From a bacterium (GTDB lineage Bacteria; Verrucomicrobiota; Kiritimatiellia; CAIKKV01; CAITUY01), in the NCBI GenBank assembly GCA_037132275.1, contig JBAXPK010000007.1, positions 518 to 64,517 of the forward strand: a DNA stretch of 64,000 bases, read 5' to 3'. The number at the start of each line of letters is the position of its first letter. Position 1 is the first letter of the stretch. Positions 1-62,452 of this stretch are shown piece after piece. The notes beneath the pieces were generated by a model. The model did no database searches and was not told where the DNA came from. It was given only the letters and a program-made list of their open reading frames with translations. The translations under genes were made by a program, and so were the position numbers.

Positions 1-1
1 C

Positions 2-1873
2 GGCAGCCTGACGGCGGCATCCCTGAGTGTGGCGAGCGGCGCGACTCTGGAATATACGCCCAGTAGCGCCCCGATCACGGTGACGGGCGCCCTGACGTTG
101 AACGGCACGCTGAACATCACGGGCTCGGGCTTCGGTGTCGGCACCTACACGCTCTTCAACTACGGCTCGCTCAGCGGCAGCGGGCTGGTCGTAGGCTCGG
201 TGCCTGATAGTTCTCATCGTTACTCCATCTCGACCAACGCGCCAGGTGAGGTGCAACTCCTTGTCGAGAACACTCCTCCCTCGGTGTCCCTTGTGGCGCC
301 GACCAGCGGGGTGACGTACCTGCGAGGCCAGACGGTGTCACTGGCGGCGACGGCGGCCGATGACGTGTCGGTGGCCGGGGTGACCTTCACTGTAGACGGT
401 GTTCTGGTGGGAACCGACACGGTGGAGCCCTACACGGCGAGCTGGACGGCCACGACGGTGGGCAGCCATGAGCTGACGGCGGTGGCGCAGGACGGAGCCG
501 GGTTGATGAGCACGTCGACGGTGACGGTGACAGTGGCGCAGCCTTCGGTGACGCATGTGGGGGCGACCTACAGCGAGGGGAATGCAAACGGCCATGAATA
601 TGGGGTTGATGCCTTCACCAGTATCCAGGGCGCGATCGAAGCGGTGCAGGCCGGAGGAACGGTCTGGGTGACAAACGGCGTCTACAACACGGGTTCGACG
701 AACCTGAACGGGGTGGAGACGCGTGTGGCGCTGACCAAGGCGGTGACGGTGCGCAGTATCAACGGCGCGGCCGTGACGGTCATCGAGGGCGCGGCGGATA
801 AGTCCGCGACAAACGGCCCGTCGGCCGTTCGGTGCGCCTATGTGGGCGGCGGGGCGTCATTGGTCGGCTTCACGCTGACCAACGGGCATACCCGTGAGCT
901 GCCGACAGGGAGTTACACCCCCGCGTGGGACTTACAGGTTTTCGGTGGCGGTATCTTCGCCGAGGCGGGCGGACTGGTTTCGGATTGCCTCATCAAGGGC
1001 AACACGGCGAGCCTGGGTGGTGGCGGCGCGGCGGTCGAAAGCGCGGCGACGCTGCGCGACTGTGTGGTGGTCGGCAATAGTTCGCCCTACGGCGGCGGTG
1101 TGGCGGCGCTGACCACGGCTATGGTGGAGAGTTGCACGCTGAGCGACAACAGCGCGAGCACGCAAGCTGGCGGGTTGTATGCCGACCATGCGGTCGTGCG
1201 CAACACGATCATATGGAGCAACACGGCGCCGACGTCGGCTGAGTACTTCCGCAGCGCTGGCACGTTCCTTCGGAACTGCGCCAAGCCGCTGCCCGTGGGC
1301 ACGGGGAATATCGCGGTGGCTCCGCAGTTCATCGGTCAGGCGTGGGGCAACTACGCGCTGGCGGGAACCTCGCCGTGTATTGACGCGGGGACGAACCAGT
1401 CGTGGATGACCGGCGCGAAGGATGTGAACGGCCAGACCCGCCTGCAGGACGGTAATGGCGATGGCAAGACGATCGTGGATATCGGCGCCTATGAGTTTGG
1501 TGCGGCGCCGAGGCTGGTGATCACGGCCAATGGGTTCAACGCGCCGTTGACGGTGGCGGCAGGCGAGCGGGTCCAGGTGGCGATCACGGTGAACAAGGGG
1601 GCGGGCGTGCCGAACAAGGACTGGTGGCTGTTGCAGGAGACTCCGGATGCCAATTGGCAGTACTACGACACGGCATCAGGTCTCTGGAAGACGGGCATCA
1701 AGGTCACCTACAAGGGGCCGTTTGCCTCGATGGGCGTGACGCCGATGCTTGAGAGCACGACGCTGCCGGTGGGGACGAACCTGTTCTACTTCGGCGTGGA
1801 CTCCAGGATGGACGGGATCCTGCAGCCAGACAAGCTGATCTACGACAGCGTCCAGGTCATTGTGACGCCGTAA
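2..1873 (+). CDS. Secreted beta-helix / Ig-like repeat surface protein, 5'-truncated by the window edge
   Basis: The frame is open from base 2 with no upstream stop. N-terminal beta-strand repeats (ALTLNGTLNITGSG). Ig-like module (PPSVSLVAPTSG...TVTVTVAQ). Gly-rich parallel beta-helix-type repeats (GGGIFAEAGG, GGGGAAVES, GGGVAAL). C-terminal ~100 aa domain shared with 20903..22987. Strong terminator follows. Confidence 0.6.
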   Translation, partial: GSLTAASLSVASGATLEYTPSSAPITVTGALTLNGTLNITGSGFGVGTYTLFNYGSLSGSGLVVGSVPDSSHRYSISTNAPGEVQLLVENTPPSVSLVAPTSGVTYLRGQTVSLAATAADDVSVAGVTFTVDGVLVGTDTVEPYTASWTATTVGSHELTAVAQDGAGLMSTSTVTVTVAQPSVTHVGATYSEGNANGHEYGVDAFTSIQGAIEAVQAGGTVWVTNGVYNTGSTNLNGVETRVALTKAVTVRSINGAAVTVIEGAADKSATNGPSAVRCAYVGGGASLVGFTLTNGHTRELPTGSYTPAWDLQVFGGGIFAEAGGLVSDCLIKGNTASLGGGGAAVESAATLRDCVVVGNSSPYGGGVAALTTAMVESCTLSDNSASTQAGGLYADHAVVRNTIIWSNTAPTSAEYFRSAGTFLRNCAKPLPVGTGNIAVAPQFIGQAWGNYALAGTSPCIDAGTNQSWMTGAKDVNGQTRLQDGNGDGKTIVDIGAYEFGAAPRLVITANGFNAPLTVAAGERVQVAITVNKGAGVPNKDWWLLQETPDANWQYYDTASGLWKTGIKVTYKGPFASMGVTPMLESTTLPVGTNLFYFGVDSRMDGILQPDKLIYDSVQVIVTP

Positions 1874-1900
1874 GCAGGAATGATGTTGGTTAGTGGTTCT

Positions 1901-1940
1901 GAACCCGGAGACAACGAGTGTTGTCTCCGGGTTCTCTTTA
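1901..1940 (+). terminator. Rho-independent terminator
   Basis: Perfect 15-bp stem gaacccggagacaac / gttgtctccgggttc (1901-1915, 1920-1934) with loop gagt, followed by tcttta. Confidence 0.7.
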
Positions 1941-1975
1941 AGCGAAGCCCTTGCGCAAAAGCGCCACGCAAAGGT

Positions 1976-2018
1976 GTAACCACTCCCTAATCCCTGACTA
2001 ACATTTCGGATTCATAGT
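1976..2018 (+). promoter_or_regulatory. Pho-box-like promoter element: three 11-bp-phased CTRAY motifs plus a CATAGT -10-like hexamer
   Basis: GTAAC at 1976, CTAAT at 1987, CTAAC at 1998. Palindrome TGACTA-N14-TAGTCA at 1995-2020. CATAGT at 2013-2018, exactly 15 nt after the proximal CTAA as at the other copies. Confidence 0.45.
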
Positions 2019-2055
2019 CAATTCCATTTGTTCAAGGCGTTGACACTGTGCGAAA

Positions 2056-3438
2056 TTGAAATTTATGAGCCAGACAAACAACAACGAAACAGAAGAGAAA
2101 CGGTTCTCCAAATGGCATACTGCCAGTGCGTGCCTCGGCTTGTGTTTCTTTTGCCTGGTATGGGGGGGGATATCCGTCCAGCATGGGTTTTTCCCTGGGT
2201 ATTTGCTTCGCAACGCCTATGAGGGGGCCAAAGCGGCAAGGGCTAGCTTGCACTATTGGCACATGCGATATAGCGACGACCTCTGGTCGACAAACCGGTT
2301 TTCGCGTAGTGGTGTCACGATTCATGACCCGGCCAGGACGTTTGAGGGCTACACCTTGTATACGTCCGGACACAGTCAGGCAGCGGTGCTGATGGATATG
2401 GGCGGGAAGGTTGTCCATGAATGGAAACTGCCCTATGACCAAATATGGGATTCGTCCGGCGAGGTGAAATATCCCCGCCCTCCCCACCAGGTCTTCTGGT
2501 TCAAGGCGAAGGTCTTTCCGAATGGCGATCTTATGGCCGTTGTGGAAGGAAATGGGGGCACACCCTGGGGCCAGGGAATCATCAAGATAGACCGCGATTC
2601 CCGCCTCATCTGGAAGTACCTGGGCTGTGCGCATCACGACTTCAGCATCGGCGACGACGGACGCGTCTACGGGTTGACGCATGCCATCCGTGAGGAACCC
2701 CTAACTAACCTGCCGCTGAGCTATCCCTGCCTGGAAGATTTTGTCGTGGTGCTGTCGCCGGACGGCAAAAAGGAGCAGCAGGTCTCGATGTTCGAAGCCC
2801 TCGCCAATTCGCGTTACAGGCGGGCTCTGGAAGCGGCGCCGAAAACCCCCTACGGGGAATATCTCCATTGCAACGCGGTTCGCGTGGTTGACAAACAGAT
2901 CGTGCGGAATTTCCCCTTTGCGCATGAGGGGCAGGTATTTGTTTCGATCCGTGAATTCAGCGCCGTGGTGCTTGTTGATCTCAGTAAGCGTTCGGTCGTG
3001 AACGCGCTGATTGGTTCATGGAGGTATCAGCATGATCCGGACTTTCTGGATAACGGCCACGTCATGCTCTTCGATAACTATGGCAACATGGAGGATGGGG
3101 GGATTTCGCGTGTCATCGAGTTTGATCCCCTGACCGGCGGCGTGGTGTGGTCTTACCATGGTACGGATGCCAACCCCCTGAGCAGCGAGAAGCGGTCGAA
3201 CGCCCAGCGGCTGCCCAATGGGAACACGCTCATCACGGAATCGGATTCAGGAAGACTCCTCGAAGTGACGACCCAAGGTGACGTGGTCTGGGAATTCATC
3301 AATCCCGTCAGGGGTGGAAAGAAAGGGGAGCTCATCCCGGTCATCAGCACCGGCGAGCGCATCGCGCCGGAAAGCCTCGATCCGTCGTTCCGCGACACTC
3401 TTGCTTCAAAACAAACTCAAACGAAAGGCTCACCGTGA
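2056..3438 (+). CDS. Aryl-sulfotransferase (ASST)-like beta-propeller protein with N-terminal membrane anchor
   Basis: N-terminal TM (ASACLGLCFFCLVWGGISV). Motifs recalled from ASST/Arylsulfotran_2 proteins: HHDFSIGDDGRVYGL, YLHCNAVRVVD, QHDPDFLDNGHVMLFDNYGN, RLPNGNTLITESDSGRLLEVTTQGDVVWEF. Start is TTG 2056 or ATG 2065. Confidence 0.55.
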   Translation: MKFMSQTNNNETEEKRFSKWHTASACLGLCFFCLVWGGISVQHGFFPGYLLRNAYEGAKAARASLHYWHMRYSDDLWSTNRFSRSGVTIHDPARTFEGYTLYTSGHSQAAVLMDMGGKVVHEWKLPYDQIWDSSGEVKYPRPPHQVFWFKAKVFPNGDLMAVVEGNGGTPWGQGIIKIDRDSRLIWKYLGCAHHDFSIGDDGRVYGLTHAIREEPLTNLPLSYPCLEDFVVVLSPDGKKEQQVSMFEALANSRYRRALEAAPKTPYGEYLHCNAVRVVDKQIVRNFPFAHEGQVFVSIREFSAVVLVDLSKRSVVNALIGSWRYQHDPDFLDNGHVMLFDNYGNMEDGGISRVIEFDPLTGGVVWSYHGTDANPLSSEKRSNAQRLPNGNTLITESDSGRLLEVTTQGDVVWEFINPVRGGKKGELIPVISTGERIAPESLDPSFRDTLASKQTQTKGSP

Positions 3439-3695
3439 ATACACGCATGACCGTATTTTTGTTAGCCATTGTAAGTCTCTTTGGCATTGTGCCTTCGGCC
3501 ATGGCTTATGTCGGACCCGGTGCGGGACTGACGCTGGTCGGATCGTTTATCGGGCTTTGCCTCACCCTGTTGGTGGCTTTGTGGGCTGTCCTTTCGTGGC
3601 CGATTCGCAGACTGCTTAAGCGCAGGGGACGGGGCGCTTCAGGTGGAGAAAAGGCTCCTGAGATGGATCACACACATGACAGCCCCTCTTCTTGA
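3435..3695 (+). CDS. Small two-TM membrane protein
   Basis: Two hydrophobic helices joined by YVGPGAG, followed by a basic tail (RRLLKRRGRG). Overlaps the upstream stop by 4 nt (GTGA). An alternative ATG start lies at 3447. Confidence 0.45.
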   Translation: MNTRMTVFLLAIVSLFGIVPSAMAYVGPGAGLTLVGSFIGLCLTLLVALWAVLSWPIRRLLKRRGRGASGGEKAPEMDHTHDSPSS

Positions 3696-4131
3696 CCTGA
3701 TTGACACGCGTTTGCTGGGATTCCTGCCTGACTTGGCTAAAATCGCGGTGTGGGCCGTGCTGTGCAGCATCATCTCCATGGCACTCTACCGGTGGCTTTC
3801 CCCGCAGAAGCGGCTGGCGGCGGCCAAAGATGACGCCAACCGGACGCGCCTGACGCTTTCCCGCTACGATGGTCCAGGGGACGGGTTGCCCCCGCTCATC
3901 AGGGCATCGTTACTCGCGGCACTCCGGCATATGGGTTTGTGTTTGGGGCCCGCTCTTGTGTCTTCAATTCCCGTGATCGCCATATTCCTATGGATGAACG
4001 CCGTCTACGGCACACCGGCGCGGGACACCCTGTCATTCGGCCCGTCCTGGTTCAGGGCATGGTATGTGCCGTTCAGTGTCGTCATGCTGGCGGCATCACT
4101 GACGATCAAGAAGGTGTGGCGCATTGTGTAG
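3643..4131 (+). CDS. Hypothetical integral membrane protein
   Basis: Three to four hydrophobic segments. Sits in the operon between the ASST-like and sulfotransferase genes. The start is uncertain (ATG 3676 is possible). No family recognised. Confidence 0.4.
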   Translation: MEKRLLRWITHMTAPLLDLIDTRLLGFLPDLAKIAVWAVLCSIISMALYRWLSPQKRLAAAKDDANRTRLTLSRYDGPGDGLPPLIRASLLAALRHMGLCLGPALVSSIPVIAIFLWMNAVYGTPARDTLSFGPSWFRAWYVPFSVVMLAASLTIKKVWRIV

Positions 4132-4155
4132 GCGGGGTCTGCTGGAGTAAGGTTC

Positions 4156-5280
4156 ATGGACAAAACAACACAAGAGAGTTCGGACTTTCAGGTTGACTGG
4201 TTGACAAACCGATTGAGCCAATGGGTCTGGAAGTCGCCGGGGCGTGCTGTTCGGCTGGGGAACCATGAGAGCCGGTGGTTTGCCGATGAATTACAGTCCT
4301 GCCCGGTTCAGAAGCCGGTGTTCATTGCGGGGTTGGCAAGGTCGGGAACCACGATCCTGCTGGAGTTCATGGCGATGCTAGACGGGGTGGCCACCCATCG
4401 ATACCGTGATTTCCCGCTGGTGCATATGCCTATCTGGTGGAACGAGTTCCTGAACCTCACTCCCCGGAAACGCATGGAGCCCGTCGAAAGGAGCCATCGC
4501 GACGGCATTGTGATCACGCCCGAAAGCCCGGAGGCGATGGAAGAGCCCCTCTGGATGAGTTTCTTTCCGCTGGCCCACGACTCGGCGGTCAGCCAGGTGC
4601 TGAATGCGGCCACGGTGAACCCGGGATTTGAAGCGTTTTTCCAAGACCACTTGCGCAAGATCCTGTTCGTGCGCCAGGGTCGCCGCTATGTGTCGAAGGG
4701 CAATTACAACGTCACGCGGCTCGAGTATCTCCTGCGTCTGTTTCCGGACGCACGGTTTGTGGTGCCGGTGCGGGAACCTGCGGGGCACGTGGCTTCACTC
4801 ATCAAGCAGCACCGCATCTTCGGCGAAAATCTTCGAGGCAATCCGCGTGCGCTTGAGTATCTGCGCCGCGTTGGGCACTTCGAATTCGGGCCGGACAGGC
4901 GGGCGATCAATGTGGGGGACACGGTCCTGGCCCGGGAGATTGAAGCGTTGTGGGCCGCCGGCGAAGAGGTGCGTGGTTGGGCCCGATACTGGGCCTCCAT
5001 CCATGGTTTCCTTGCGGGGCGCATGGAATCGGATCCGCTCTTTCGGAAGGCTGTACGACTGGTTCGGTTTGAGGAACTGTGCGAGCGGCCGGCCGCTGAA
5101 CTCAGGAAGATCGCGGAGCATGGTGAGTTTACAGATGCCGCGCGAGGCGCGGACTCTTTCGCGGAACGAATTCGGTTCCCTCGGTACTACGCGCCTTCGT
5201 TCAGTGAAGCCGACGGGATGGCCATTAAGGACGAAACGGCGTCCGTGTTCATGCGACTCATGCGTCTCCAACAACAATGA
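4156..5280 (+). CDS. PAPS-dependent sulfotransferase family protein
   Basis: 5'-phosphosulfate-binding P-loop FIAGLARSGTTILLEFM. A downstream VPVREPAGHVASL segment resembles the 3'-phosphate-binding motif of sulfotransferase-domain proteins. Confidence 0.65.
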   Translation: MDKTTQESSDFQVDWLTNRLSQWVWKSPGRAVRLGNHESRWFADELQSCPVQKPVFIAGLARSGTTILLEFMAMLDGVATHRYRDFPLVHMPIWWNEFLNLTPRKRMEPVERSHRDGIVITPESPEAMEEPLWMSFFPLAHDSAVSQVLNAATVNPGFEAFFQDHLRKILFVRQGRRYVSKGNYNVTRLEYLLRLFPDARFVVPVREPAGHVASLIKQHRIFGENLRGNPRALEYLRRVGHFEFGPDRRAINVGDTVLAREIEALWAAGEEVRGWARYWASIHGFLAGRMESDPLFRKAVRLVRFEELCERPAAELRKIAEHGEFTDAARGADSFAERIRFPRYYAPSFSEADGMAIKDETASVFMRLMRLQQQ

Positions 5281-5293
5281 AAGGGCTCGTATT

Positions 5294-6244
5294 ATGAAGA
5301 ACAGGCAGTTTTATAATGGGATGTCGGTATTACTTGCCGTGGTTTCGCTTCTGGGCGCAGGCTGCGGTAAGCGGCAGACTGCGCCGGAGGCCCGGATCAC
5401 GGTTTCGGGTGCCTGGGCGCTTTACCCGATGATGGTGAAATGGGCGGAAGAATATAGGAAGTCACATCCCGGGATTCAGATCGATATTTCTGCAGGCGGA
5501 GCCGGAAAAGGGATGACGGATGCCTTATCAGGCGCCGCCGATATCGGCATGGTTTCACGGGATATCAATCCCTCCGAAGCGGGTAAGGGGGCATGGTGGG
5601 TGGCGGTGGTCAAGGATGCCGTGATTCCCGTCATGAATGCCTCAAACCCGAACGGCGGCATCCTCGCCAAACGGGGTCTCAAGAAAGAGGAATTTACCGC
5701 CATCTTTGTGAAGGGAAATGTTCAGGATTGGAGTTTTGCGGGCGGCACACCAACTCCGCTTCATGTTTATACTCGATCAGACGCCTGCGGCGCAGCGGAA
5801 ACCTGGGCCAAGTATCTTGGCGCCAAGCAGGAAGACTTGAAGGGAACCGCCGTTTACGGGGATCCCGGCGTGGCCGAAGCCGTGCGCAAAGACGTGTCAG
5901 GCATCGGGTTCAATAATCTGATTTTCGCCTATGACATCAAGAGCGGTCAACCCCTTCCGGGTATATGCGTCATCCCCATCGACAGCAATGGGAACGGCGC
6001 CGTGGATCCCGGGGAGGATTTCTATGGGACCCACAAGGCGGTCATGCAGGCAATTGCTACGGGGCGTTATCCCTCCCCGCCAGCCCGTGATCTGAATCTG
6101 GTGCATCATGGGCCCCCCCCGTCCGGACCTGTTGCCGATTTTATCAAGTGGGTGCTTGCGGAGGGGCAAGCGTTTGTATCCGAAGCCGGCTATATCGCCC
6201 TGCCCGCTGAAATCCTCAACAGCCAGAAGGCAAAGCTGAAATAG
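5294..6244 (+). CDS. pstS: Phosphate ABC transporter substrate-binding lipoprotein PstS
   Basis: Lipobox LLGAGC. PstS-type motifs ITVSGAWALYP, ISAGGAGKGMTDALSGAADIGMVSRDINPSE. ATG 5294 lies 13 nt after the sulfotransferase stop. The longer track ORF from 4628 overlaps the previous gene and is Arg/Ser/Cys-rich. Confidence 0.8.
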   Translation: MKNRQFYNGMSVLLAVVSLLGAGCGKRQTAPEARITVSGAWALYPMMVKWAEEYRKSHPGIQIDISAGGAGKGMTDALSGAADIGMVSRDINPSEAGKGAWWVAVVKDAVIPVMNASNPNGGILAKRGLKKEEFTAIFVKGNVQDWSFAGGTPTPLHVYTRSDACGAAETWAKYLGAKQEDLKGTAVYGDPGVAEAVRKDVSGIGFNNLIFAYDIKSGQPLPGICVIPIDSNGNGAVDPGEDFYGTHKAVMQAIATGRYPSPPARDLNLVHHGPPPSGPVADFIKWVLAEGQAFVSEAGYIALPAEILNSQKAKLK

Positions 6245-6247
6245 GCC

Positions 6248-7150
6248 ATGGATCGTGATTCCATACGACAGGGACTGGATTGCTGGGGCCGCCGAGGCAT
6301 GGTTGCGACGGTGGCGATGTGCATTTTACTCCTACTGCTTATGGCGATGGGCCTGCTGTGGAAATCCTGGCCCATTCTTAGCTCACATTCACTGGCAGGC
6401 CTGTTTCTTTCCAGCGTCTGGAAACCCCATGGAGGGCAGTTCGGATTTCTGGCCTTCATTCTGGGTTCCTTATGCATTACCGGAGTAGCGGTGCTGCTGG
6501 CCGCGCCGGTTTCGTTGTTAACGTCCATCTATCTGTCCGAATATGCCGGACGCCGGATCCGGGCGTTGATGTCGCCCCTGATCGATCTCCTGGCGGGCAT
6601 TCCCTCGGTGGTTTACGGGGTGTGGGGAGTGCTGGTGGTCGTTCCCCTGGTGAAAGATCATCTAGCGCCGGTATTCGGCCGATATTCATCCGGGTATTGC
6701 GTTCTTTCCGCCGGGGTGGTGCTGGCCATCATGATTTTGCCTGTCGTCATTCATGTGGGCCTGGATGTGTTGAAGTCCGTTCCCCAGGGGTTGCGCGAGG
6801 CCTCCCTGTCACTGGGCGCGAATCGGTGGGAAACGGTGAAGCATGTAGTATTGCGGCGTGCGGCGCCGGGCCTGTTGGCCGCCAATGTTTTAGGCGTGTC
6901 GCGGGCCTTTGGCGAGACGATGGCCGTTCTCATGGTGGCGGGGAACGTCGCCGTGACTCCGAAATCCGCATTCGATCCCGCCTACCCGCTACCCGCGCTC
7001 ATTGCCAACAACTACGGCGAGATGATGTCGATCCCGCAGTATGACTCCGCCCTGATGCTGGCGGCGCTCATGCTTTTCGTGGTGGTACTGGGTTTCAATT
7101 TATTGTCGCGCTGGGTTTTTGCCCGTATGGAGTTGCGCATTTCAGGATGA
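6248..7150 (+). CDS. pstC: Phosphate ABC transporter permease PstC
   Basis: Multi-TM permease with an EAA-like loop (GLREASLSLGANRWETVKHVVLRRAAPGL). Lies immediately after pstS. Confidence 0.8.
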   Translation: MDRDSIRQGLDCWGRRGMVATVAMCILLLLLMAMGLLWKSWPILSSHSLAGLFLSSVWKPHGGQFGFLAFILGSLCITGVAVLLAAPVSLLTSIYLSEYAGRRIRALMSPLIDLLAGIPSVVYGVWGVLVVVPLVKDHLAPVFGRYSSGYCVLSAGVVLAIMILPVVIHVGLDVLKSVPQGLREASLSLGANRWETVKHVVLRRAAPGLLAANVLGVSRAFGETMAVLMVAGNVAVTPKSAFDPAYPLPALIANNYGEMMSIPQYDSALMLAALMLFVVVLGFNLLSRWVFARMELRISG

Positions 7151-7154
7151 ACCC

Positions 7155-8003
7155 ATGAGAAAGCAGATTGAAGAAATTGCCGCCAAAATCCTGATGATCG
7201 GAGCCGCCGTGGTGGTGGCCGGGATGGTCGTTTTGATTCTCGGAACCGTGTTATGGCGCGGCCTCCCGGCGTTGAGTTGGGAAATGATCTCGCAGACTCC
7301 GTCCGGCGGTTACTATCTCGGAAAGGGCGGCGGCATTCTCAATGCCATCGTCGGGTCACTTTCGGTGGCCGGTGGCGCAACCCTGCTGTCGCTCGGCCTG
7401 GCTTTGCCAGTGGCGTTGAGCCTGAATGTCTATTTCAAGACCCATTCCCGACTGGCGGGTTGCGTCAGGGGCTCGTTGGATGTGCTGTGGGGTGTGCCCT
7501 CCATTGTCTATGGCGCCTTCGGGTTTGCGTTTATGCTTTGGCTCGGACTCCGCGCTTCCCTCCTGGGGGGGATTATCACCGTGGCTTTGATGATCCTCCC
7601 CATCATGATCCGGGCCATGGATGAAGTGATTCACATGGTTCCGCACGAGATGCTGGAAGCCTCCGATGCCCTGGGTGCCACCCGGTGGGAGGGCGCCTGG
7701 AAGGTAATCCTCCGGCAGGCGCTTCCCGGACTTGCCAGCGCGGCGCTGATCGCCTTCGGGCGGGGGATCGGGGATGCCGCCTCTGTTCTTTTCACGGCGG
7801 GATTTTCGGACCGGATTCCGATGTCACTTGCGGATCCTGCTGCGACCCTGCCGCTGGCCATATTCTTCCAGTTGGGTACCCCGTTCCCGGAGGTTCAGCA
7901 ACGGGGCTATGCTGCGGCGCTGATATTAACGGCCATCGTGCTGACGGCCAGCGCTCTGGCGCGTCTGGTCAGCCATCGGGCGGGACGGTTTGTAATTCGA
8001 TGA
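7155..8003 (+). CDS. pstA: Phosphate ABC transporter permease PstA
   Basis: Multi-TM permease with EASDALGATRWEGAWKVILRQALPGL. ATG 7155 lies 4 nt after the pstC stop. Confidence 0.8.
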   Translation: MRKQIEEIAAKILMIGAAVVVAGMVVLILGTVLWRGLPALSWEMISQTPSGGYYLGKGGGILNAIVGSLSVAGGATLLSLGLALPVALSLNVYFKTHSRLAGCVRGSLDVLWGVPSIVYGAFGFAFMLWLGLRASLLGGIITVALMILPIMIRAMDEVIHMVPHEMLEASDALGATRWEGAWKVILRQALPGLASAALIAFGRGIGDAASVLFTAGFSDRIPMSLADPAATLPLAIFFQLGTPFPEVQQRGYAAALILTAIVLTASALARLVSHRAGRFVIR

Positions 8004-8013
8004 AGGACATACC

Positions 8014-8775
8014 ATGACAGCCAATACCCCTATTGAAGTGAAAGACCTGAATGTGCATTACGGCACGATCCATGCTTTGAAAAATATCCACGTTAGTATC
8101 CCCAATTGCCAGATCACGGCAGTCATCGGCCCCTCGGGGTGCGGTAAGTCTACCTTGTTGCGTTCGTTCAACCGCATGCTCGACACCATGGATGATGTGC
8201 GGGTCACAGGCGGGGTGCTGGTCGACGGTGAGAATATTTTTGCGGCCAATGCGGATGTGCCGCGTCTACGCCGCAAGATGGGACTGCTTTCTCAGCGGCC
8301 GTTTCTCCTGCCTATGTCGATCTATGACAATGTGGCCTACGGGCCGCGCATCCATGGGATCAGCCGCCATTCCGACCTGGATTGCACCGTGGAAAAATAC
8401 CTCCGGATGGCCAACATGTGGGATGAGGTCAAGGATCGTCTTCGCGAGCCCGCTGCAAAGCTGTCGATCGGTCAACAGCAACGGCTCTGCCTGGCGCGGG
8501 GCCTCGCTGTGGAACCCGAGATTATCCTGGCGGACGAGCCCACCTCGGCGCTGGACCCGATTTCAAGCCGTCACATTGAACAACAATTCCGAGAGTTACG
8601 GGCTGACTACACGCTGGTGATGGTGACCCATATTCTTCGGCAGGCCCGTCGCCTGGCCGACTATGTGCTTTTCATGTATCTGGGTGAACTCATCGAGCAC
8701 GGGCCGGCGGCCGAACTGTTTGAGAATCCCCGCGAGGAATTGACGAAGGATTATATCAAGGGAACGATCAGTTAG
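8014..8775 (+). CDS. pstB: Phosphate ABC transporter ATP-binding protein PstB
   Basis: Walker A GPSGCGKST, signature LSIGQQQRLCLARGL, Walker B IILADEPTSALD. PstB-typical N-terminus (VKDLNVHYG) and C-terminus (TKDYIKG). Confidence 0.85.
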   Translation: MTANTPIEVKDLNVHYGTIHALKNIHVSIPNCQITAVIGPSGCGKSTLLRSFNRMLDTMDDVRVTGGVLVDGENIFAANADVPRLRRKMGLLSQRPFLLPMSIYDNVAYGPRIHGISRHSDLDCTVEKYLRMANMWDEVKDRLREPAAKLSIGQQQRLCLARGLAVEPEIILADEPTSALDPISSRHIEQQFRELRADYTLVMVTHILRQARRLADYVLFMYLGELIEHGPAAELFENPREELTKDYIKGTIS

Positions 8776-8786
8776 GAGGCCAGGCC

Positions 8787-9308
8787 ATGGTGAGTAGTAA
8801 GATTCAACCTGCAGTCGTGTGGTTCACCGGATTATCAGGGTCCGGCAAGAGTACCCTTGCTGAGAAGGTGGAGCACGCCCTGAAGATGCGTGGCGTGGAC
8901 ACCGAGATTCTGGATGGCGACCGGGTTCGCGCGGTCTTTCCGAGCATCGGGTTCTCCCTTGAGGAGCGCAACGCGCATATCCGCCGCATGGGCTTCATGG
9001 CGGGTCTCCTTGAGAAACACGGTGTGGTGGTGCTGGCGAGTTTCGTGTCGCCTTATGCAGAGGCCCGCCAGGCGGCGCGGTGGCAATGCCGCAATTTTAT
9101 TGAGGTCTATCTTTCCACCCCCCTCGCCGAATGCGAGCGGCGCGATGTGAAAGGTCTCTACGGCAAGGCGCGCCGGGGCGAGATCTCCAACTTCACCGGA
9201 GTCAGTGATCCGTATGAAGTTCCGGAGAATCCGGATCTGGTTATCGACACCACCGCCATGAGTGTGGAGGAATCTGTTGCCCTGGTTCTGGGGAGATTGC
9301 AGTCATGA
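8787..9308 (+). CDS. cysC: Adenylylsulfate (APS) kinase CysC
   Basis: [56 protein letters not shown]. All canonical APS kinase motifs are retained. Confidence 0.85.
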
Positions 9309-10210
9309 CAATCCATTCCCTGACCCATTTGAAGCAACTGGAAGCCGAGAGCATTCATATCATGCGCGAGGTGGCCGCAGAATTCGAGCGGCCGGTCATG
9401 CTTTACTCGGTCGGGAAAGACTCATCGGTCATGGTGCGGCTGGCCCAGAAGGCCTTTTACCCCGGACGGATTCCCTTTCCACTGATGCATGTGGATACAG
9501 GTTTCAAATTCGGGGAGATGATTGAGTTCCGTGACCGGTTTGTGAAGGAGATCAAGGCGGATCTTATTGTGCATCAGCATGAAAAATCAGCCGACCTGTC
9601 GGTGAATCCCTTTGCCCTCGGAACCCAGAAGTGCTGTGCGATACTTAAGACGCAGGCTCTGGTGGAAGCCATACGCAAACATAAGTTTGACGCCGCTTTC
9701 GGGGGCGCCCGCCGCGAGGAGGAGAAATCGCGGGCCAAGGAGCGGGTGTTCTCCTTTCGGGACGAGCTCGGGCAGTGGGATCCCAAAAACCAGCGTCCGG
9801 AACTGTGGAGCCTCTATAATACCCGGGTCAACACAGGCGAATCCATCCGAGTATTCCCCATCTCCAACTGGACCGAGTTGGATGTCTGGCAATATATCTA
9901 CATGGAAAAGATTCCGGTGGTGCCCATGTACTTTGCGCAGGAGCGCGACATGATTGTGAGGGATGAGCAGTTGATTCCGTTCCAGGAAACCACGCCGCTC
10001 AAACCGGGCGAACACCCCTGCAAAGTGCTGAGTCGATTCCGCACCCTGGGCTGTTATCCCTGTACCGGGGCCATCCGGTCATCGGCGTCAACGGTGGCGG
10101 AAATCATCGAGGAAATGATGGTCGTACGCATCTCCGAACGTTCGACCCGCGTGATTGATCATGACGCCGAGGGCTCGATGGAAATGAAGAAACGGGAAGG
10201 GTATTTCTAG
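9305..10210 (+). CDS. cysD: Sulfate adenylyltransferase subunit 2 CysD
   Basis: [35 protein letters not shown] (PP-loop), [11 protein letters not shown], and the C-terminal KKREGYF typical of CysD. ATGA overlap with cysC. Confidence 0.9.
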
Positions 10211-10211
10211 A

Positions 10212-12143
10212 ATGAATGCGATTGAGGCATTTCTGGCGGAGAATGAGAAGAAGGATCTGCTTCGGTTTTCGACGGCGGGCAGCATTGACGACGGCAAGTC
10301 AACCCTGATCGGCCGTTTACTGCACGACTCAAAGAATGTCTACGAGGATACGCTGGCGTCGATCAAAAAGGCGTCTCGTGAAAAAATGTCGGAGGAACAG
10401 ATCGACCTTGCCTTGCTCACTGACGGTCTTAAGGCAGAACGCGAGCAGGGGATCACCATTGACGTCGCCTACCGCTATTTTTCGACACCGCGCCGGAAAT
10501 TCATCATCGCCGACACGCCCGGACACGAGCAATACACCCGGAATATGGCGACCGGCGCCTCGACCGCCAATCTTTCGGTTGTGCTGGTGGATGCGCGTCA
10601 TGGCATCCTTCCCCAGACGCGGCGCCATGCGTTTATCGCCTCCCTGCTGGGGGTGCCGCACATGATTGTGGCCGTGAACAAAATGGATGCCGTGGACTAT
10701 CGGGAAGACGTCTTTCAGGCGATTCGCGACGAGTTCGCTGAGTTTGCCTCGAAGCTGGGCATCAAGGATCTGCGTTTCATTCCGCTGAGTGCCCTCAAGG
10801 GCGATAACGTCGTCCATCGCAGTGGAAACATGACCTGGTACCGGGGCGAAAGCCTGATGGAAATCCTGGAGAACGTCTACATCGGCAGCGACCATAATCT
10901 CGTGGATCTGCGGTTCCCCATCCAATATGTGGTGCGCCCGGATATGGGCTTCCGCGGCTATGCCGGAGTTGTCACCTCCGGTGTCATCCGTCGGGGGGAT
11001 GAGGTGTTGGCGCTCCCTTCGATGAAAGTCAGCCGGGTCAAATCGATTGTCACCTTTGATGGCGACGTGGAAGAGGCCTGTTCGCCCATGTCGGTAACGG
11101 TCACCCTGGAAGACGAGCGTGATATCAGCCGCGGGGAAATGCTGGTCCGTCCGCATAACCTTCCCAAAATGGACCGGCGTTTTGAAGGCATGGTGGTGTG
11201 GATGGGGGATGCCCCAATGGATCTGAATGCCAGCTATTTCATCAAGCACACCACCCGCCTGACCCGGTGCCGGGTGGACGAAATCCGTTACAAGGTGAAT
11301 GTGAACACCCTGGCCAGAGAGGCCATGACGGGACTCGCCTTGAATGACATTGGCCGGGTTGTCTTCACCGCCAATCAACCCCTGTTCAGTGATTCCTACG
11401 AGAAGAACCGGGGAACCGGCTCATTTATCCTGATTGACCCCGTGACCAACGCCACTGCGGCAGCCGGGATGATCATTGATCGCGAACCAGCGGAACAGCT
11501 TGTTTCCCGCATCACCCCCGGGGTAGGGGCGCACACGATGAGCCGGCATGGCCGCCAGATCGAGGCCGGGGAGCGGGTGGCGCGTTATGGGCAGAAGCCG
11601 GCGACCCTGTGGCTGACCGGTCTGGTGGGATCGGGAAAATCAAGTCTGGCTGGCGCGCTAGAGCGGAAGCTTTTCGACTTGGGCGCCGTCAGCGTTGTCC
11701 TCGATGGTTCGAATGTGCGGTCGGGCCTCAACCGTGAACTGGATTTCACGTCCGAGGGGATGGCCGAACATCTCCGCCGCGTCGCTGAGATGGCTCGGCT
11801 CCTGAACGATGCCGGGTTGGTGGTTATATGCGCCTTTGTTTCCCCTCATGAAAAGGTGCGCCGGCAGGTGGCTGAAATTATTGGAATCGACCGGTTTCTG
11901 GAAGTTCACGTGGATGCGCCCCTTGAGTGGTGCCAGGCTCACGACCACACTGGGTTCTATCAGCGGGCCGAGGTAGGCGAGGTGCGCAACGTGGCGGGCA
12001 TCAGTTTTCCTTATGAAGCGCCGACCACGCCCTCGCTCAGGGTGTCGACGCCGGATATGACGCCTGAAGGTGCTGTATCAATCGTCATGAACCTGCTGCG
12101 TAAACAAGGGATATTCCCGGTCGGTGCTCTCTCAAATGAGTGA
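10212..12143 (+). CDS. cysN: Sulfate adenylyltransferase subunit 1 (CysN GTPase) fused to an APS-kinase-like C-terminal domain
   Basis: GTPase motifs [21 protein letters not shown]. The C-terminal domain starts about 11601 ([15 protein letters not shown]) but has LDGSNVR instead of LDGDNVR, plus other substitutions. Confidence 0.85.
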
Positions 12144-12176
12144 AGTTAATACTTTGCTGGCAGGGGTGATGCCTAA

Positions 12177-12590
12177 TTGAAGATTCCAAACAGCGTGGAA
12201 CGCGTTCTTAAATTTGGCGTGGTCGGGGTCTTGACCTTCGCGCTGGATCTTATTCTTCTTTATGTTTGTATCGACTGGTTGGAATGGAATTACATTATCG
12301 CGACGGGAATCGCGTTCACAATGGCCGTTTCTGTAAACTATTATGGCGACCGGCGCTGGGTGTTCAAAGGCACTCTCAGGTCCATCCGGGCGGGGTATGT
12401 TATTTTCATGGTCATCGGATGCGTGGGCGCGGCCATTGCCATGGTCGGCATGTCCGTCCTCGTGGGGGTTTTCCACATTCATTATTTTGCATCGCGCATC
12501 GCCATTGCGAGCCTGGTGGGCCTGTGGAACTATTTCATGAACCTCTATGTAAACTTTCAGGTGACAGGCAAGCACGGGGAGGCTTCCTGA
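12177..12590 (+). CDS. GtrA-family membrane protein
   Basis: 137 aa with 4 TM segments. FGVVGVLTFALDLILLYV...NYYGDRRWVFK matches the GtrA-like pattern. The TTG start is uncertain. Confidence 0.6.
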   Translation: MKIPNSVERVLKFGVVGVLTFALDLILLYVCIDWLEWNYIIATGIAFTMAVSVNYYGDRRWVFKGTLRSIRAGYVIFMVIGCVGAAIAMVGMSVLVGVFHIHYFASRIAIASLVGLWNYFMNLYVNFQVTGKHGEAS

Positions 12591-12636
12591 ATCTGTTTCC
12601 CGTCCCCGCAGCCCGGGTGTGCCGGCTTGCGAGCAT

Positions 12637-12679
12637 CTAACGTGAGCGTTGTTGTTTCCTAACATAGGGTGTCTATCGT
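12637..12679 (+). promoter_or_regulatory. Promoter-like element: CTAAC-N17-CTAAC-N10-TATCGT
   Basis: CATCTAACG (12634-12642), N10, TGTTTCCTAACA (12653-12664), then TATCGT at 12674-12679. It lies 28 nt upstream of ATG 12707, which has an AAGGAGG RBS. Confidence 0.45.
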
Positions 12680-12706
12680 CTTTCCAAGTTAAGGAGGAAT
12701 GACGAT

Positions 12707-12895
12707 ATGAAATGTTTAAAATGCAACGACGAAGTAGATATTAAGAAGAACGAAATCCCGCCACGTTGGTACGGGCATTACGAGAACGCGAAACTCGCGA
12801 AGCTCATGTGCGTGGAATGCCTTGTGACCCATAAAGAGATATGGGATTTGGTACGGACGGGGTGTGGGGGTGGTAAGCAAGCCCTTTCGGCTTGA
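12707..12895 (+). CDS. Small zinc-ribbon protein (two CxxC pairs)
   Basis: 62 aa with CLKC...CVEC. Strong RBS aaggagg 8 nt upstream. Locally AT-rich codons. Short hairpin caagcc/ggcttg over the stop codon. Confidence 0.5.
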   Translation: MKCLKCNDEVDIKKNEIPPRWYGHYENAKLAKLMCVECLVTHKEIWDLVRTGCGGGKQALSA

Positions 12896-12924
12896 CTGTT
12901 CTCGTCCACCCTGCTGACGAACAT

Positions 12925-12967
12925 CTAACGAGCGGGTCGCTGTTTCCTAACAGGGTTGGCTTATGAT
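12925..12967 (+). promoter_or_regulatory. Promoter-like element, twin of 12637..12679
   Basis: CATCTAACG (12922-12930), N10, TGTTTCCTAACA (12941-12952), then TATGAT at 12962-12967. Identical spacing to the first copy. Confidence 0.45.
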
Positions 12968-13003
12968 GTGGTTTTTGATCGTTTACAAACGGAGCAACAT
13001 ATC

Positions 13004-13330
13004 ATGGCAAAGAAGGCAGTGAAAAGCGCGGTGACGACGCGTGCAACGGTAAAACCGCAACTACCCCGGCGTAAGCGGGTAACATTCCGGTTTCAGGCGA
13101 AAGAAGGAGCCGATGTGCGTGTGGCGGGGAGTTTTAACAACTGGGATCCCAAGGCCCGGCTCCTGAACCCGGCGAAGGGAAACGGCGAGTACGCCAGTGC
13201 GATTCTGCTTCCGGCGGGACGTCACGAATACAAGTTCATCGTGGATGGCCAATGGCTTGGTGATCCGGTCTGTGCTGAGAAGGTTCCGGACGGGCACGGC
13301 GCGATGAATAGCGTGGTTGTGGTCGAGTAG
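13004..13330 (+). CDS. Small CBM48 / AMPK-beta-type glycogen-binding-domain protein
   Basis: VTFRFQAKEGADVRVAGSFNNWDP...YKFIVDGQWLGDP is the classic CBM48 pattern. ATG 13004 has GGAG 8 nt upstream. The track start at 12956 lies upstream of the predicted -10. Confidence 0.7.
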   Translation: MAKKAVKSAVTTRATVKPQLPRRKRVTFRFQAKEGADVRVAGSFNNWDPKARLLNPAKGNGEYASAILLPAGRHEYKFIVDGQWLGDPVCAEKVPDGHGAMNSVVVVE

Positions 13331-13379
13331 GTGGGTGCGGTATCGCCCCGGGTACTCCGATAACGGGGCAACCAAAACG

Positions 13380-14318
13380 ATGACACGATTTCCTGGCGTA
13401 TTATTGTTGTCTTTCCTGGGCATGACGGCTACCGCCCTGGCCGGTGCCGACACAAATTTTTTCTCTGAGGTCGCCGGGCGATTTCACCCGTCCAAGCCGT
13501 CTGCGGTCATGAATTACGACGTGAGCTACGCTCTGATGAGTATTCGTCTCAAGCGCGTCGCCAGCGCCACGATGACCGCCACCGAGGGGGTGTGGTGCGG
13601 TAGCGTCTCCAACTCGTCGAGCCCCGCCTGCATGATCGATTTTTTTGTCGCCACGCCCCGGGGCGACGAGGGCGAGATGAGTCTATATAAGCGCACGGTC
13701 TCCGTGCTGACCCTACCGGATTTGAAACTCATTACGTATGTGAAGCAAAACGATGAATTCATCAAGCCGTTCTTCGGGAAAGGGCGGCGGATGAAATATA
13801 CCGAGGAGTATAACTTCGAGCCCGCCGCTATGACCTACCGCCGCCACGATTTTGTGACCGGCACGGTGGAAACGAATCTCCAGGGCATGGCCGACCTGGC
13901 TAGGCAGAGCACGGAAGTCGCCGATGTGATCCGTGCCTTGTATGCGTCCTACCAGGGGGCCCCGGCGGTCGGTCGGCCTGTGGCGGACAAGATTCATTTT
14001 AACGTGGATGGCGCCGTCCGGACGTTCGATCTCAAGATGAAGAAGGGACGGATATCAGTCCCTGTTCTGTCTCGGAAACTCATGGCGTTGTATGCCGACA
14101 TCCAGCCGGGGGCGGGATGTACCGACCGGAATGAAAGCTTTTCCATGTGGTGCGTGCCGTTCAAGGAACTCTCTCGTGAAACGAATGATCCGAAACTGCA
14201 GCAACTTGCCGAAACGAGTCTGGAGTGCTCCATGGTGCCCTTATCAGGAGAGTACGCTTTGTTCCTGGGCAGTTTGCAGTGCACGCTCGCCACCATTGGC
14301 ACCCATTCCTGGGATTAA
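13380..14318 (+). CDS. Hypothetical secreted protein
   Basis: Signal peptide MTRFPGVLLLSFLGMTATALAGA from ATG 13380. No family confidently recognised; any DUF3108 resemblance is weak. Confidence 0.45.
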   Translation: MTRFPGVLLLSFLGMTATALAGADTNFFSEVAGRFHPSKPSAVMNYDVSYALMSIRLKRVASATMTATEGVWCGSVSNSSSPACMIDFFVATPRGDEGEMSLYKRTVSVLTLPDLKLITYVKQNDEFIKPFFGKGRRMKYTEEYNFEPAAMTYRRHDFVTGTVETNLQGMADLARQSTEVADVIRALYASYQGAPAVGRPVADKIHFNVDGAVRTFDLKMKKGRISVPVLSRKLMALYADIQPGAGCTDRNESFSMWCVPFKELSRETNDPKLQQLAETSLECSMVPLSGEYALFLGSLQCTLATIGTHSWD

Positions 14319-14378
14319 GCTCAACCCTAGGGGCCGGGCGCGATGCCGGGGCAGTACTGACTAGACCCCAATGAAATC

Positions 14379-14421
14379 CTAATGGTTGTCAAACATTGCT
14401 CTAACGATTGAATGTTATAAT
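14379..14421 (+). promoter_or_regulatory. Promoter-like element: CTAAT-N17-CTAAC-N10-TATAAT
   Basis: CTAAT at 14379, CTAAC at 14401, perfect TATAAT at 14416-14421. The ATG at 14432 is 11 nt after the hexamer and has no SD, so the mRNA is probably leaderless or nearly so. Confidence 0.5.
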
Positions 14422-14431
14422 TCACATCCAT

Positions 14432-16810: not shown

Positions 16811-17823
16811 TGGCACACCAGTATGTGGAACGGCGGAGTGCGTGCGCCGTCGGCGAGACGTTTTTTGGCGACCCGGTTGTCTCTTTTTTGTATTCACGGA
16901 TCCGTGAGGAGTCAGGGTGGTTGTACCGGGCGCTGACCTCATCCCGGCTGACCAACCTGCTGGGGATATTGCAGTTCGATGTCCGTCCCCGCGATCCCGC
17001 CCGTATGCGTTGGCGGCTGGCATCGGCGTGTGGAGTGGACTTTTCGGAATGTGCCGACCCGTTGGAGACTCTCGATACGGCGCGCAAGGTCTTTGAGCGC
17101 AAGATTCGCTATTGGGAGTGCAGGCCCATGGATCCCGATCCCGGGGCGATCGTATCCCCTTCGGATGCCCGTCTCTTGGTGGGTTCGTTCCAAAAGGTTT
17201 CCGGTTTGTTGCTCAAAGAAAAATTCTTCCGCTTCGAGGAATTGTTGGGCGATGATAAACTCGGCTGGCAGGAATCGTTCCGCGGCGGGGATTATGCCGT
17301 GTTACGACTGACGCCCGACAAGTACCATCGCAACCATGCGCCCGTGACCGGGGTGGTGAGGGATATCTACGAAGTGGACGGGGTCTTCCAGTCCTGCCAC
17401 CCCGCTGTCGTCATTGCCCAGGCCACGCCCTATTCCAAGAACCGGCGGACGGTTACGATCATTGACACCGATGTGCCGGGCGGAACACAAGCCGGGCTGG
17501 TGGCGATGGTCGAGGTGGTGGCGCTGATGATTGGCGAGATTGTGCAGTATTACTGTCAGGAGCGATACGATGCCCCCTTGGCAGTGTATAAAGGATTGCA
17601 CCTCTTGCGAGGATGCCCAAAGAGTCTGTTCCGCCCCGGCAGTTCCACGGTTGTGCTGGTGTTTCAACCGGGGCGCATCCGGTTTAGCGAGGATCTTGTG
17701 GCAAACCTCCGGCGTACCGATGTGAGGAGTTGTTACAGCGATGGAGAAGGAGGCGCCGTGGTGGAAACCGATGTGGCAGTCAGGTCAACCATTGCCCGCG
17801 TCGTTCCGGGAGGCCAGGCATGA
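16807..17823 (+). CDS. psd: Phosphatidylserine decarboxylase-family protein
   Basis: LRLTPDKYHRNHAPVTGVV and the self-cleavage-type motif FRPGSSTVVLVF (compare the canonical LGST). Confidence 0.7.
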   Translation: MMAHQYVERRSACAVGETFFGDPVVSFLYSRIREESGWLYRALTSSRLTNLLGILQFDVRPRDPARMRWRLASACGVDFSECADPLETLDTARKVFERKIRYWECRPMDPDPGAIVSPSDARLLVGSFQKVSGLLLKEKFFRFEELLGDDKLGWQESFRGGDYAVLRLTPDKYHRNHAPVTGVVRDIYEVDGVFQSCHPAVVIAQATPYSKNRRTVTIIDTDVPGGTQAGLVAMVEVVALMIGEIVQYYCQERYDAPLAVYKGLHLLRGCPKSLFRPGSSTVVLVFQPGRIRFSEDLVANLRRTDVRSCYSDGEGGAVVETDVAVRSTIARVVPGGQA

Positions 17824-18923: not shown

Positions 18924-18940
18924 TCTTTCTGCGGCATAGT
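18898..18940 (+). promoter_or_regulatory. Pho-box-like promoter element containing a 26-bp palindromic unit
   Basis: CTGAC at 18898, CTAAC at 18909, GGACTAATCTT at 18917-18927. Palindrome GGACTA-N14-TAGTCC at 18917-18942. CATAGT at 18935-18940. Confidence 0.5.
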
Positions 18941-18950
18941 CCGCTGATCT

Positions 18951-19703: not shown

Positions 19704-19747
19704 GACAGAACGACATGGCGGGCGAGTATGAGCGCCCTTACAAAGTT

Positions 19748-19790
19748 CTGACCGCAGACTAATTCGAGACTAATCATTCTGCGGCATAGT
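19748..19790 (+). promoter_or_regulatory. Pho-box-like promoter element upstream of the phoB-like gene
   Basis: CTGAC at 19748. Tandem 11-mers AGACTAATTCG (19756-19766) and AGACTAATCAT (19767-19777). Palindrome AGACTA-N14-TAGTCT at 19767-19792. CATAGT at 19785-19790. Confidence 0.55.
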
Positions 19791-19843
19791 CTGACCCAGA
19801 TTATATCCCGGGCGCTGTTCCCGTTCGCAGGGACGACTATTCT

Positions 19844-27614: not shown

Positions 27615-27618
27615 TTCA

Positions 27619-50839: not shown

Positions 50840-50903
50840 AATTGTGTCCCCCTGAAATTGGTTGAGTGAAGCAACTGAATGGCAACATCATCCCGAAAAA
50901 CGG

Positions 50904-52445: not shown

Positions 52446-52449
52446 GATG

Positions 52450-53637: not shown

Positions 53638-53799
53638 TGGACATTAGGAAAATGTCTATATTCCGATATCTCGGTGGTGGGTGTGTTTGCGACACGTTAG
53701 TTTTGAGTTACAAGTGAAGGCTTTCCCGCGCCATATCCGCCACAAGAGAGATGACCTTCCGTGCGGTTAGCAACGCAGGGATGCCCAATCATCACAAGG

Positions 53800-62450: not shown

Positions 62451-62452
62451 CC

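Follow-up and report, generated by a model that had tools for sequence, protein, structure and literature searches.

The stretch of Kiritimatiellia DNA analyzed here (contig JBAXPK010000007.1; 64,000 nt, hereafter the window) carries near its start an operon that brings together sulfation, pst-like and cys genes, and in front of this operon, at 1976–2020 on the plus strand, lies an array of short repeats that is the subject of this work. Gene family assignments were taken from Pfam and NCBIfam profile matches, and loci from related bacteria are designated by L numbers. The features around the start of the operon are as follows.

1901–1934, plus strand: hairpin with a 15-bp stem at the end of the upstream Big_7 gene (29–1873), RNA fold −29.4 kcal/mol, z = −6.2; kept in L091
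1976–1980, plus strand: distal repeat unit GTAAC, at about −49 to −45 on the assumption that CATAGT occupies −12 to −7; kept as GTAAC in L090 and L091
1987–1991, plus strand: middle repeat unit CTAAT, at about −38 to −34; kept in L090 and L091
1998–2002, plus strand: proximal repeat unit CTAAC, at about −27 to −23, with 10 bp between its end and the −10 hexamer; kept in L090 and L091
2013–2018, plus strand: −10-like hexamer CATAGT (CACAGT in L090, CATAGT in L091)
2065–12590, plus strand: operon encoding an arylsulfotransferase-like protein, small open reading frames (ORFs), a sulfotransferase, PstS-like, PstC, PstA and PstB proteins, APS kinase, CysD, CysN/C and GtrA

A sequence-only reading of this DNA had described the element as three CTRAY motifs spaced 11 bp apart (GTAAC at 1976, CTAAT at 1987 and CTAAC at 1998) and followed by CATAGT at 2013–2018. 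The bases, positions and spacing are as it gave them, except that the distal GTAAC does not fit CTRAY. The element does lie upstream of the first gene, the start of which is more likely the ATG at 2065 (457-aa product P0121) than the TTG at 2056 that had been proposed. The hairpin at 1901–1934 probably insulates the operon, so that a new promoter would be needed 3′ of it. The proximal unit does end 10 bp upstream of the −10-like hexamer with no −35 box, and a sigma-70 consensus scan of 1800–2200 found neither a −35/−10 pair in this interval nor a TTGACA-like −35 at a spacing of 16–18 bp. The same reading had likened this geometry to that of E. coli Pho boxes, and the match is a good one, as PhoB-dependent promoters of E. 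coli are reported to have direct repeats with an 11-bp period, the last of them ending 10 bp short of the −10, and to lack a −35 (PMC1906773). Counts in the sigma-70 scan were at or below chance in all three intervals covered (1800–2200, 1–20000 and 50000–64000); none of the matches in the two longer intervals fell on a box promoter, and promoters without boxes were not described by the scan either.

The segment between the −10 hexamer and the start codon has features of its own. A perfect TTGACA is present at 2040–2045 on the plus strand, 20 nt before the start codon and downstream of the −10 of the box promoter, but it is probably there by chance since it is kept in neither L090 nor L091 and has no matching −10. 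Just 3′ of the −10, the sequence at 2019–2039 (plus strand; CAATTCCATTTGTTCAAGGCG) is nearly identical in L090, where the first-gene protein is 81 % identical, and is partly kept in L091; judged from these alignments, it is more conserved than expected of a neutral leader. No Rfam model matched at gathering score anywhere in the whole window, hence no known riboswitch or leader overlies the element.

The arrangement in front of the operon is not confined to it. Two to four CTAAY-N6 units, followed by N10 and a −10 hexamer, are found at no fewer than ten promoters in the window, including that of a response regulator gene at 19844. The sequence-only reading had reported the same layout at 18917 and 19767, and both sites were recovered, but such promoters number at least ten rather than three. 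The additional boxes and the regulator gene are listed below.

12637–12679, plus strand: CTAAC-N17-CTAAC-N10-TATCGT, before a 62-aa Zn-ribbon-like ORF (ATG 12707); kept in L001 and L091
12914–12967, plus strand: CTGAC-N6-CTAAC-N17-CTAAC-N10-TATGAT, before an AMPK1_CBM-domain gene and a 333-aa gene
14368–14421, plus strand: four phased units (CCAAT, CTAAT, CAAAC and CTAAC) and N10-TATAAT, before an ~800-aa gene, a PS-decarboxylase-like (phosphatidylserine decarboxylase-like) gene and an LGT-like gene; kept in L001
18898–18940, plus strand: CTGAC-N6-CTAAC-N6-CTAAT-N10-CATAGT, the strongest box outside the operon, before a 250-aa gene (ATG 18951); kept in L001, L010 and L090
19748–19790, plus strand: predicted autoregulatory box CTGAC-N6-CTAAT-N6-CTAAT-N10-CATAGT, before the regulator gene at 19844
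19844–20542, plus strand: OmpR/PhoB-family response regulator (Pfam REC and Trans_reg_C), the proposed binder of the boxes
20632–20685, plus strand: CTAAT-N17-CTAAT-N6-CAAAC-N10-CATGAT, before a beta-helix protein gene (20903); kept in L001, L006, L007, L010, L012 and L090
23111–23142, plus strand: TTAAT-N6-CTAAC-N10-TATAAT, before a lipoprotein ORF (ATG 23172), a TonB-dependent receptor gene and ExbB/ExbD/TonB genes; kept in L001, L006 and L007
34951–35004, plus strand: weaker box with CTGAT, GTAAC, CTAAT and CAAAT at 11-bp phase and N10-TTTACT, before a Wza-like polysaccharide export gene
50887–50918, minus strand: CTAAT-N6-CTAAC-N10-GATGAT, before priming sugar transferase (Bac_transf), GT2 and methyltransferase genes; an equivalent box precedes Bac_transf in L092
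53685–53711, minus strand: uncertain and possibly weak box with phased GTAAC, CTAAC and CAAAC and no convincing −10 at N10, before a GT4-like coding stretch (recognized by eye on the minus strand) and a MurJ-like gene

Alignment of ten of the window promoters on their proximal unit gave cTAAC-N6-CTAAT-N6-CTAAC-N10-tATaaT. The pattern CTAAY-N6-CTAAY, with at most one mismatch, matched the window 18 times against 3.84 ± 2.23 expected, and CTAAY-N10-BATVVT matched it eight times (at 1998, 12659, 12947, 14401, 18920, 19770, 23122 and, on the minus strand, 50907) against 0.50 ± 0.67 expected; not one of 100 shuffles reached 18 for the former or 8 for the latter. All eight of the CTAAY-N10-BATVVT sites read in the sense direction of an ORF that begins some tens of nucleotides further on, and a relaxed composite pattern applied to the window and eleven related loci matched exclusively at non-coding, sense, upstream positions. 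CTAAY pairs on one strand of the window and no more than 40 nt apart were separated by 11 bp (4 pairs), 22 bp (4 pairs) or 20 bp (1 pair), with no further spacing represented; of the pairs in the related loci (253 kb), 16 had the 11-bp and 14 the 22-bp spacing, and 4 were spaced otherwise. The spacing is thus one of strict helical phasing in which units are skipped now and then. For two parts of a large exopolysaccharide cluster, the Wza-like export gene and the operon of the priming sugar transferase, the association is weaker.

In related bacteria the operon and its promoter are retained together. Orthologs of the first gene in L090 (81 % identity) and L091 (76 % identity) head operons with the same gene order, including the pst-like genes, cysC, cysD and cysNC. 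The box in L091 is identical to that of the window, and the promoter in L090 reads GTAAC-N6-CTAAT-N6-CTAAC-N10-CACAGT, with the three units and all spacings kept.

The regulator encoded at 19844 is the most plausible link between the boxes and a signal. Its best match in PDB is RegX3, which the entry describes as a sensory transduction protein and which we take to be the phosphate-regulon regulator of mycobacteria. Relatives with 72–92 % identity are orphan regulators in syntenic or related contexts, while those with 63–65 % identity (L008 and L009, a level at which other database entries are named Kiritimatiellia or Verrucomicrobia bacterium) are encoded by the first gene of phoB-phoR-porin-pstS-pstC-pstA-pstB-phoU clusters. 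Within these clusters the box is found before phoB (CTAAC-N6-CTAAC), before the porin genes (TTAAC-N6-CTAAC-N10-TATCGG and GTAAC-N6-TTAAC-N10-TATTGC) and, in L009, before pstS, where four units are in phase (TTAAC-N6-CTAAC-N6-CTGAC-N6-CTAAC-N10-TTAAAT). No box precedes the LVIVD, DUF4382, AI-2E, DUF883 or PEBP-family genes of L008 and L009, and none occurs elsewhere in the two loci, the tRNA-synthetase genes included. Downstream of the more distant homologs from Lentisphaeria/Victivallis (53–55 % identity) lie genes for PhoR-type kinases that combine HAMP, PAS, HisKA and HATPase domains, and these phoB-phoR operons are preceded by CTAAC-N6-CTAAC or TTAAC-N6-CTAAC. Core Pho genes of the lineage therefore carry the box, namely phoB and the porin gene (L008 and L009), pstS (L009) and phoB-phoR operons (L021–L023).

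An equivalent box lies upstream of the regulator orthologs in L001, L004 and L006–L012 and of distant homologs in L020–L023. A contig scan with very specific peptide patterns yielded three close relatives and distant homologs, the group with 62–75 % identity having been missed. Among 78 of these homolog loci that were checked, a box is present upstream of the regulator gene in all 7 loci of the Planctomycetes-Verrucomicrobia-Chlamydiae (PVC) type with a free-standing promoter and in 0 of the 71 others, against a background of 0.0045 per 250 nt. The recognition helix (VTERAVDVQMVGLRKKLG) and the wing (IE(A/T)VRGVGYR) are nearly invariant in 11 regulators that are 53–100 % identical, which fits a conserved DNA specificity. 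Additional genes of interest are found in close relatives. In L004 (2140–9868) a box-preceded operon contains a GT4 gene, a gene for a protein with PF13444 and PF19576 acyltransferase domains (ornithine-lipid type) and a gene resembling that for MGDG (monogalactosyldiacylglycerol) synthase, and genes with the polyphosphate-associated CHAD or CYTH-CHAD domains are near the regulator gene in L006 (4100–5491) and L091 (2751–4325).

From the phasing, the conservation of the promoter and the recurrence of the box, we are confident that the element at 1976–2020 is a binding array for a PhoB-family regulator at an activator-dependent promoter. That it is the Pho box of this lineage, a PhoB-type array at a promoter of this kind with phosphate limitation as the signal, is a broader claim that we regard as probable. 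By this mechanism, the phosphorylated regulator would bind the CTAAY units head-to-tail and recruit RNA polymerase to the weak −10 CATAGT, much as E. coli PhoB, which is bound head-to-tail and contacts and recruits sigma-70 (PMC4415409), and transcription would start near 2025. The regulator would switch on the sulfation/pst-like/cys operon, would act likewise at the promoters that share the layout, at least nine others in the window, and would feed back positively on its own promoter. The missing −35 and the position of the array suggest activation rather than repression. Phosphate limitation is the most likely signal since the regulator family occurs in relatives within phoB-phoR clusters, with pst and phoU genes, that carry the same boxes, and the neighbors of the regulator gene in close relatives, the phosphorus-free-lipid-type operon of L004 and the CHAD and CYTH-CHAD genes, point the same way.

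Several observations weigh against assigning the element to phosphate control. The best NCBIfam match of the regulator is PhoB (TIGR02154), and the score of 237.6 bits is below the cut-off of 296.2; the regulators of the canonical clusters in L008 and L009 likewise fall short with 249–250 bits, however, so the sub-threshold score is presumably a property of the lineage. The orthology of the regulator to these canonical-cluster regulators is no more than likely from the 62–65 % identity. The regulator is an orphan in that no PhoR-type kinase gene adjoins it, and box-bearing genes in the window are mostly for exopolysaccharide, sulfation and TonB transport rather than for classical Pho functions. 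In the sequence available, no phosphatase or phosphonate gene carrying a box was seen, and the PhoU-domain gene at 53800–54453 has no clear box. Of some 17 candidate promoter regions in the window, about 10 have a box, which is unusually dense for a Pho regulon. The presence of pstSCAB in the operon, to which the sequence-only reading had appealed, gives less support than was assumed. PstC passes its curated cut-off, PstA and PstB are just short of theirs, and the PstS-like protein (5294–6244, plus strand) scores 91 bits against a cut-off of 206 and is divergent, with altered ligand motifs. Where the canonical PstS of L008 and L009 reads VDGSTTVGP, SESGSGNG and SRDTNSGTYE, this protein reads VSGAWALYP, SAGGAGKG and TRSDACGAAE, respectively, so that the anion-ligand motifs GSTT, SGSG and NSGT are replaced by GAWA, GGAG and ACGA and the Asp and Arg positions are kept. 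These three changes are conserved in L090 and L091, and the operon also holds genes for synthesis of 3′-phosphoadenosine-5′-phosphosulfate (PAPS). The PstS-like protein may therefore, to judge by these motifs, have a substrate other than orthophosphate.

Much of this would also be expected if the regulator at 19844 were a paralog of the true PhoB that shares its DNA specificity, answers to a cue other than phosphate and governs an envelope program of sulfated exopolysaccharide, lipid modification and TonB-dependent uptake. A kinase encoded at an unlinked site might pass the signal to it, the CBS-domain hybrid kinase at 42462 being one candidate. The absence of an adjacent kinase gene both in the window and in the relatives with 72–92 % identity, when the relatives with 62–65 % identity are paired with a PhoR-type kinase, favors such a paralog, and so do the preponderance of polysaccharide, sulfation and transport genes behind the boxes, the very high box density and the atypical binding protein of the pst-like transporter. 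We nevertheless consider this explanation unlikely, if the most serious of the competitors. The recognition helix and wing hardly differ from those of the canonical pho-cluster regulators, and the two kinds of regulator would thus bind the same boxes; the neighbors in close relatives suit a phosphate-sparing response; and no genome was seen that encodes both kinds of regulator, in a scan that missed the group with 62–75 % identity. A different kind of explanation does away with a specific regulator and takes the CTAAY repeats as a generic promoter feature of the lineage, be it an unusual −35, an UP-type element or a promoter for an alternative or extracytoplasmic function (ECF) sigma factor. 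Many promoters of the window do have the repeats, and the sigma-70 consensus scan rose nowhere above chance in the parts of the window covered. Yet the box is limited in relatives to a few promoters per 20 kb (phoB, porin and pstS in L008 and L009), and in the window itself it was not found at the promoter regions of araA, the 60186 genes, the hybrid kinase 42462 or ThuA. Moreover, two to four units in strict 11/22-bp phase with skipped units are typical of response-regulator arrays and not of a sigma element, and a −35 would need more than the 10 bp that lie before the −10; by our own reading of the sequence, the spacer would be 13 bp for the overlapping CTGACT. A generic feature is thus very improbable. 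An ECF-sigma promoter in particular was rejected on the multiplicity of the units and on spacing, the AAC-to-CGT distance being 13 nt here and about 16–17 in ECF promoters.

The proximal unit and its downstream flank also form a palindrome, TGACTA (1995–2000)-N14-TAGTCA (2015–2020), and this inverted repeat could in principle act as an operator, overlapping the −10, at which a dimeric repressor binds. The sequence-only reading had singled out the palindrome, and it is indeed present, occurring once in the window against 0.00 expected from shuffles. The window has exactly three perfect copies of the 24-mer GACTAA-N11-CATAGTC, at 1996, 18918 and 19768, and the 26-bp layouts at 18917 (GGACTA/TAGTCC) and 19767 (AGACTA/TAGTCT) are perfect 6-bp inverted repeats as well, so that all three of the strongest sites have perfect arms. 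The outermost base pair of the repeat co-varies among the three copies, being T/A at 1995–2020, G/C at 18917–18942 and A/T at 19767–19792. These properties would suit an operator, but the palindrome is not conserved in orthologous promoters. Its arms are broken in L090 (TGTCTA ... CAGTCA), and at the other two palindromic sites L001, whose regulator is 92 % identical, keeps CTGAC/CTAAY/CTAAY and the position of the −10 and has CATCATG and CATGATT in place of CATAGTC; L010 has CAAACTC. As the units and spacing are kept in L001, L010 and L090 and the arms are lost, the direct repeats are the conserved feature. In addition, seven other box promoters of the window are without such a palindrome. 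An operator is accordingly rejected for want of conservation of both arms, and we hold it to be scarcely probable at all. The co-variation may be a coincidence or a recent, genome-specific feature, and the inverted repeat is not counted in the mechanism since it is not maintained in relatives.

If the element is the Pho box of the lineage, its meaning for these bacteria may reach beyond phosphate uptake. Sulfation, PAPS synthesis, exopolysaccharide genes and the TonB uptake system are predicted to be co-regulated with the regulator itself, and should phosphate be the signal, these bacteria would couple the making of sulfated polymers to a shortage of phosphorus. A bolder idea, which we regard as doubtful, is that a PhoB-type regulon has been expanded in this PVC lineage into an envelope program that substitutes sulfate for phosphate. 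Were this so, phosphate limitation would co-induce PAPS synthesis, two sulfotransferases, exopolysaccharide assembly genes and a pst-derived ABC transporter through one type of box, and sulfated surface polymers or lipids would take the place of anionic ones that bear phosphate. The pst-derived transporter, whose binding protein has lost the canonical phosphate-ligand serines and threonines, may then import another anion. The analysis also offers a testable consensus for a PhoB-type box in Lentisphaerota/Kiritimatiellota-like bacteria. In it, (C/T/G)TAAY recurs with an 11-bp period and 10 bp separate the final unit from the −10, and Pho regulons could be predicted from it in metagenome-assembled genomes of these mostly uncultured polysaccharide specialists.

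Some of the genes and promoters listed above have peculiarities of their own. The ATG of the 250-aa gene at 18951 is 11 nt after the −10 hexamer, an arrangement kept in L001, L010 and L090, so the mRNA probably has little or no leader. The product annotated by NCBI is shorter, at 187 aa. The 250-aa protein matched no family in Pfam or NCBIfam, and its AlphaFold model (mean predicted local distance difference test score, pLDDT, of 67.7) has a core at residues 86–155 with values >90 that forms a small beta domain and weakly resembles the GspC-HR and PilP domains (E = 0.06); the model neither supports nor weakens a role in phosphate metabolism. The plus-strand segments 12631–12679 and 12919–12967 are near-identical promoter modules (CATCTAACG ... 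TGTTTCCTAACA, N10, −10) at a distance of 288 bp and look like a local duplication of a promoter. The first module would drive the 62-aa ORF (12707–12895), which is Cys-rich and for which there is a gene call in L001 and L091 too. The box before the beta-helix gene is ~215 nt from the start codon, with a long, purine-rich leader (20632–20902) that has no Rfam match, and the long distance from box to start recurs in L001, L006, L007, L010, L012 and L090. Long ORFs on the minus strand at 27616–28541 are probably spurious, as judged from the syntenic loci L001 and L007, where a plus-strand MotA/ExbB gene lies between the TonB-dependent receptor gene and the TonB gene. In the region 53800–54651 (minus strand), the PhoU-domain gene is isolated from any pst genes; upstream of it are a doubtful box, CAAAC-N6-ATTAC-N6-CTATC, and a GACTAAC 16 nt from the start codon.

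How do these boxes compare with known Pho boxes? They share with those of E. coli pstS and phoA the 11-bp tandem repeats, the N10 to the −10 that replaces a −35, the box before the regulator gene and a PhoB-like winged-helix regulator nearby. They differ in the CTAAY core, which is not CTGTCAT, in linkers that are not AT-rich, in arrays of two to four units of which some skip a unit (22 bp), and in that no phoR adjoins the regulator gene of the window. The recognition helix of the regulator at 19844 presumably also differs from that of E. coli PhoB at several positions. In the enterobacterial consensus, CTGTCATA(A/T)A(A/T)CTGTCA(C/T) (PMC4415409), the CTGTCAT core is unmatched by GTAAC, CTAAT or CTAAC. 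Judged on its core, the box of the window is closest to the cyanobacterial one. The Pho box of the cyanobacterial PhoB, SphR, consists of three copies of CTTAACCT with 3-bp linkers, and some sites read CCTAAC (PMC1906773). Common to both are the 11-bp period, the frequency of three units and the similarity of the core, which is TTAAC or CTAAC here and CTTAAC there, with TTAAC used by some of the relatives. The phylum is a different one, however, the conserved unit is shorter here (five to seven bases, (G)(A)CTAAY), and binding is in the present case a prediction. Arrays of 11-nt direct repeats in variable number are known as well from Streptomyces PhoP, the direct-repeat units (DRus, GTTCACC) of which vary in number and organization by promoter (PMC2275107, PMC4415409); the core sequence and the lineage are different here.

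The contents of the predicted regulon also have partial precedents. A surface polysaccharide gene, Rhizobium pssA, is under a Pho-type regulator (PMC4415409), and in Proteobacteria genes for phosphorus-free lipids and lipid remodeling have Pho boxes and are under PhoB control (PMC4796936). Unlike these exopolysaccharide and lipid genes, the predicted regulon of the window also includes a single operon for PAPS synthesis, sulfotransferases and a pst-like transporter, a combination for which our literature search returned no description. The search likewise returned no relevant paper joining a Pho box with Verrucomicrobia, nor, among the top-ranked results, a Pho box paper for Lentisphaerae, Kiritimatiellae, Akkermansia or Planctomycetes. 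A paper on cultured Kiritimatiellales describes sulfated exopolymers and gives no regulatory information (PMC7356697). The kind of element found at 1976–2020 is thus an ordinary one, and it is the consensus and the predicted content of the regulon that are new for the lineage.

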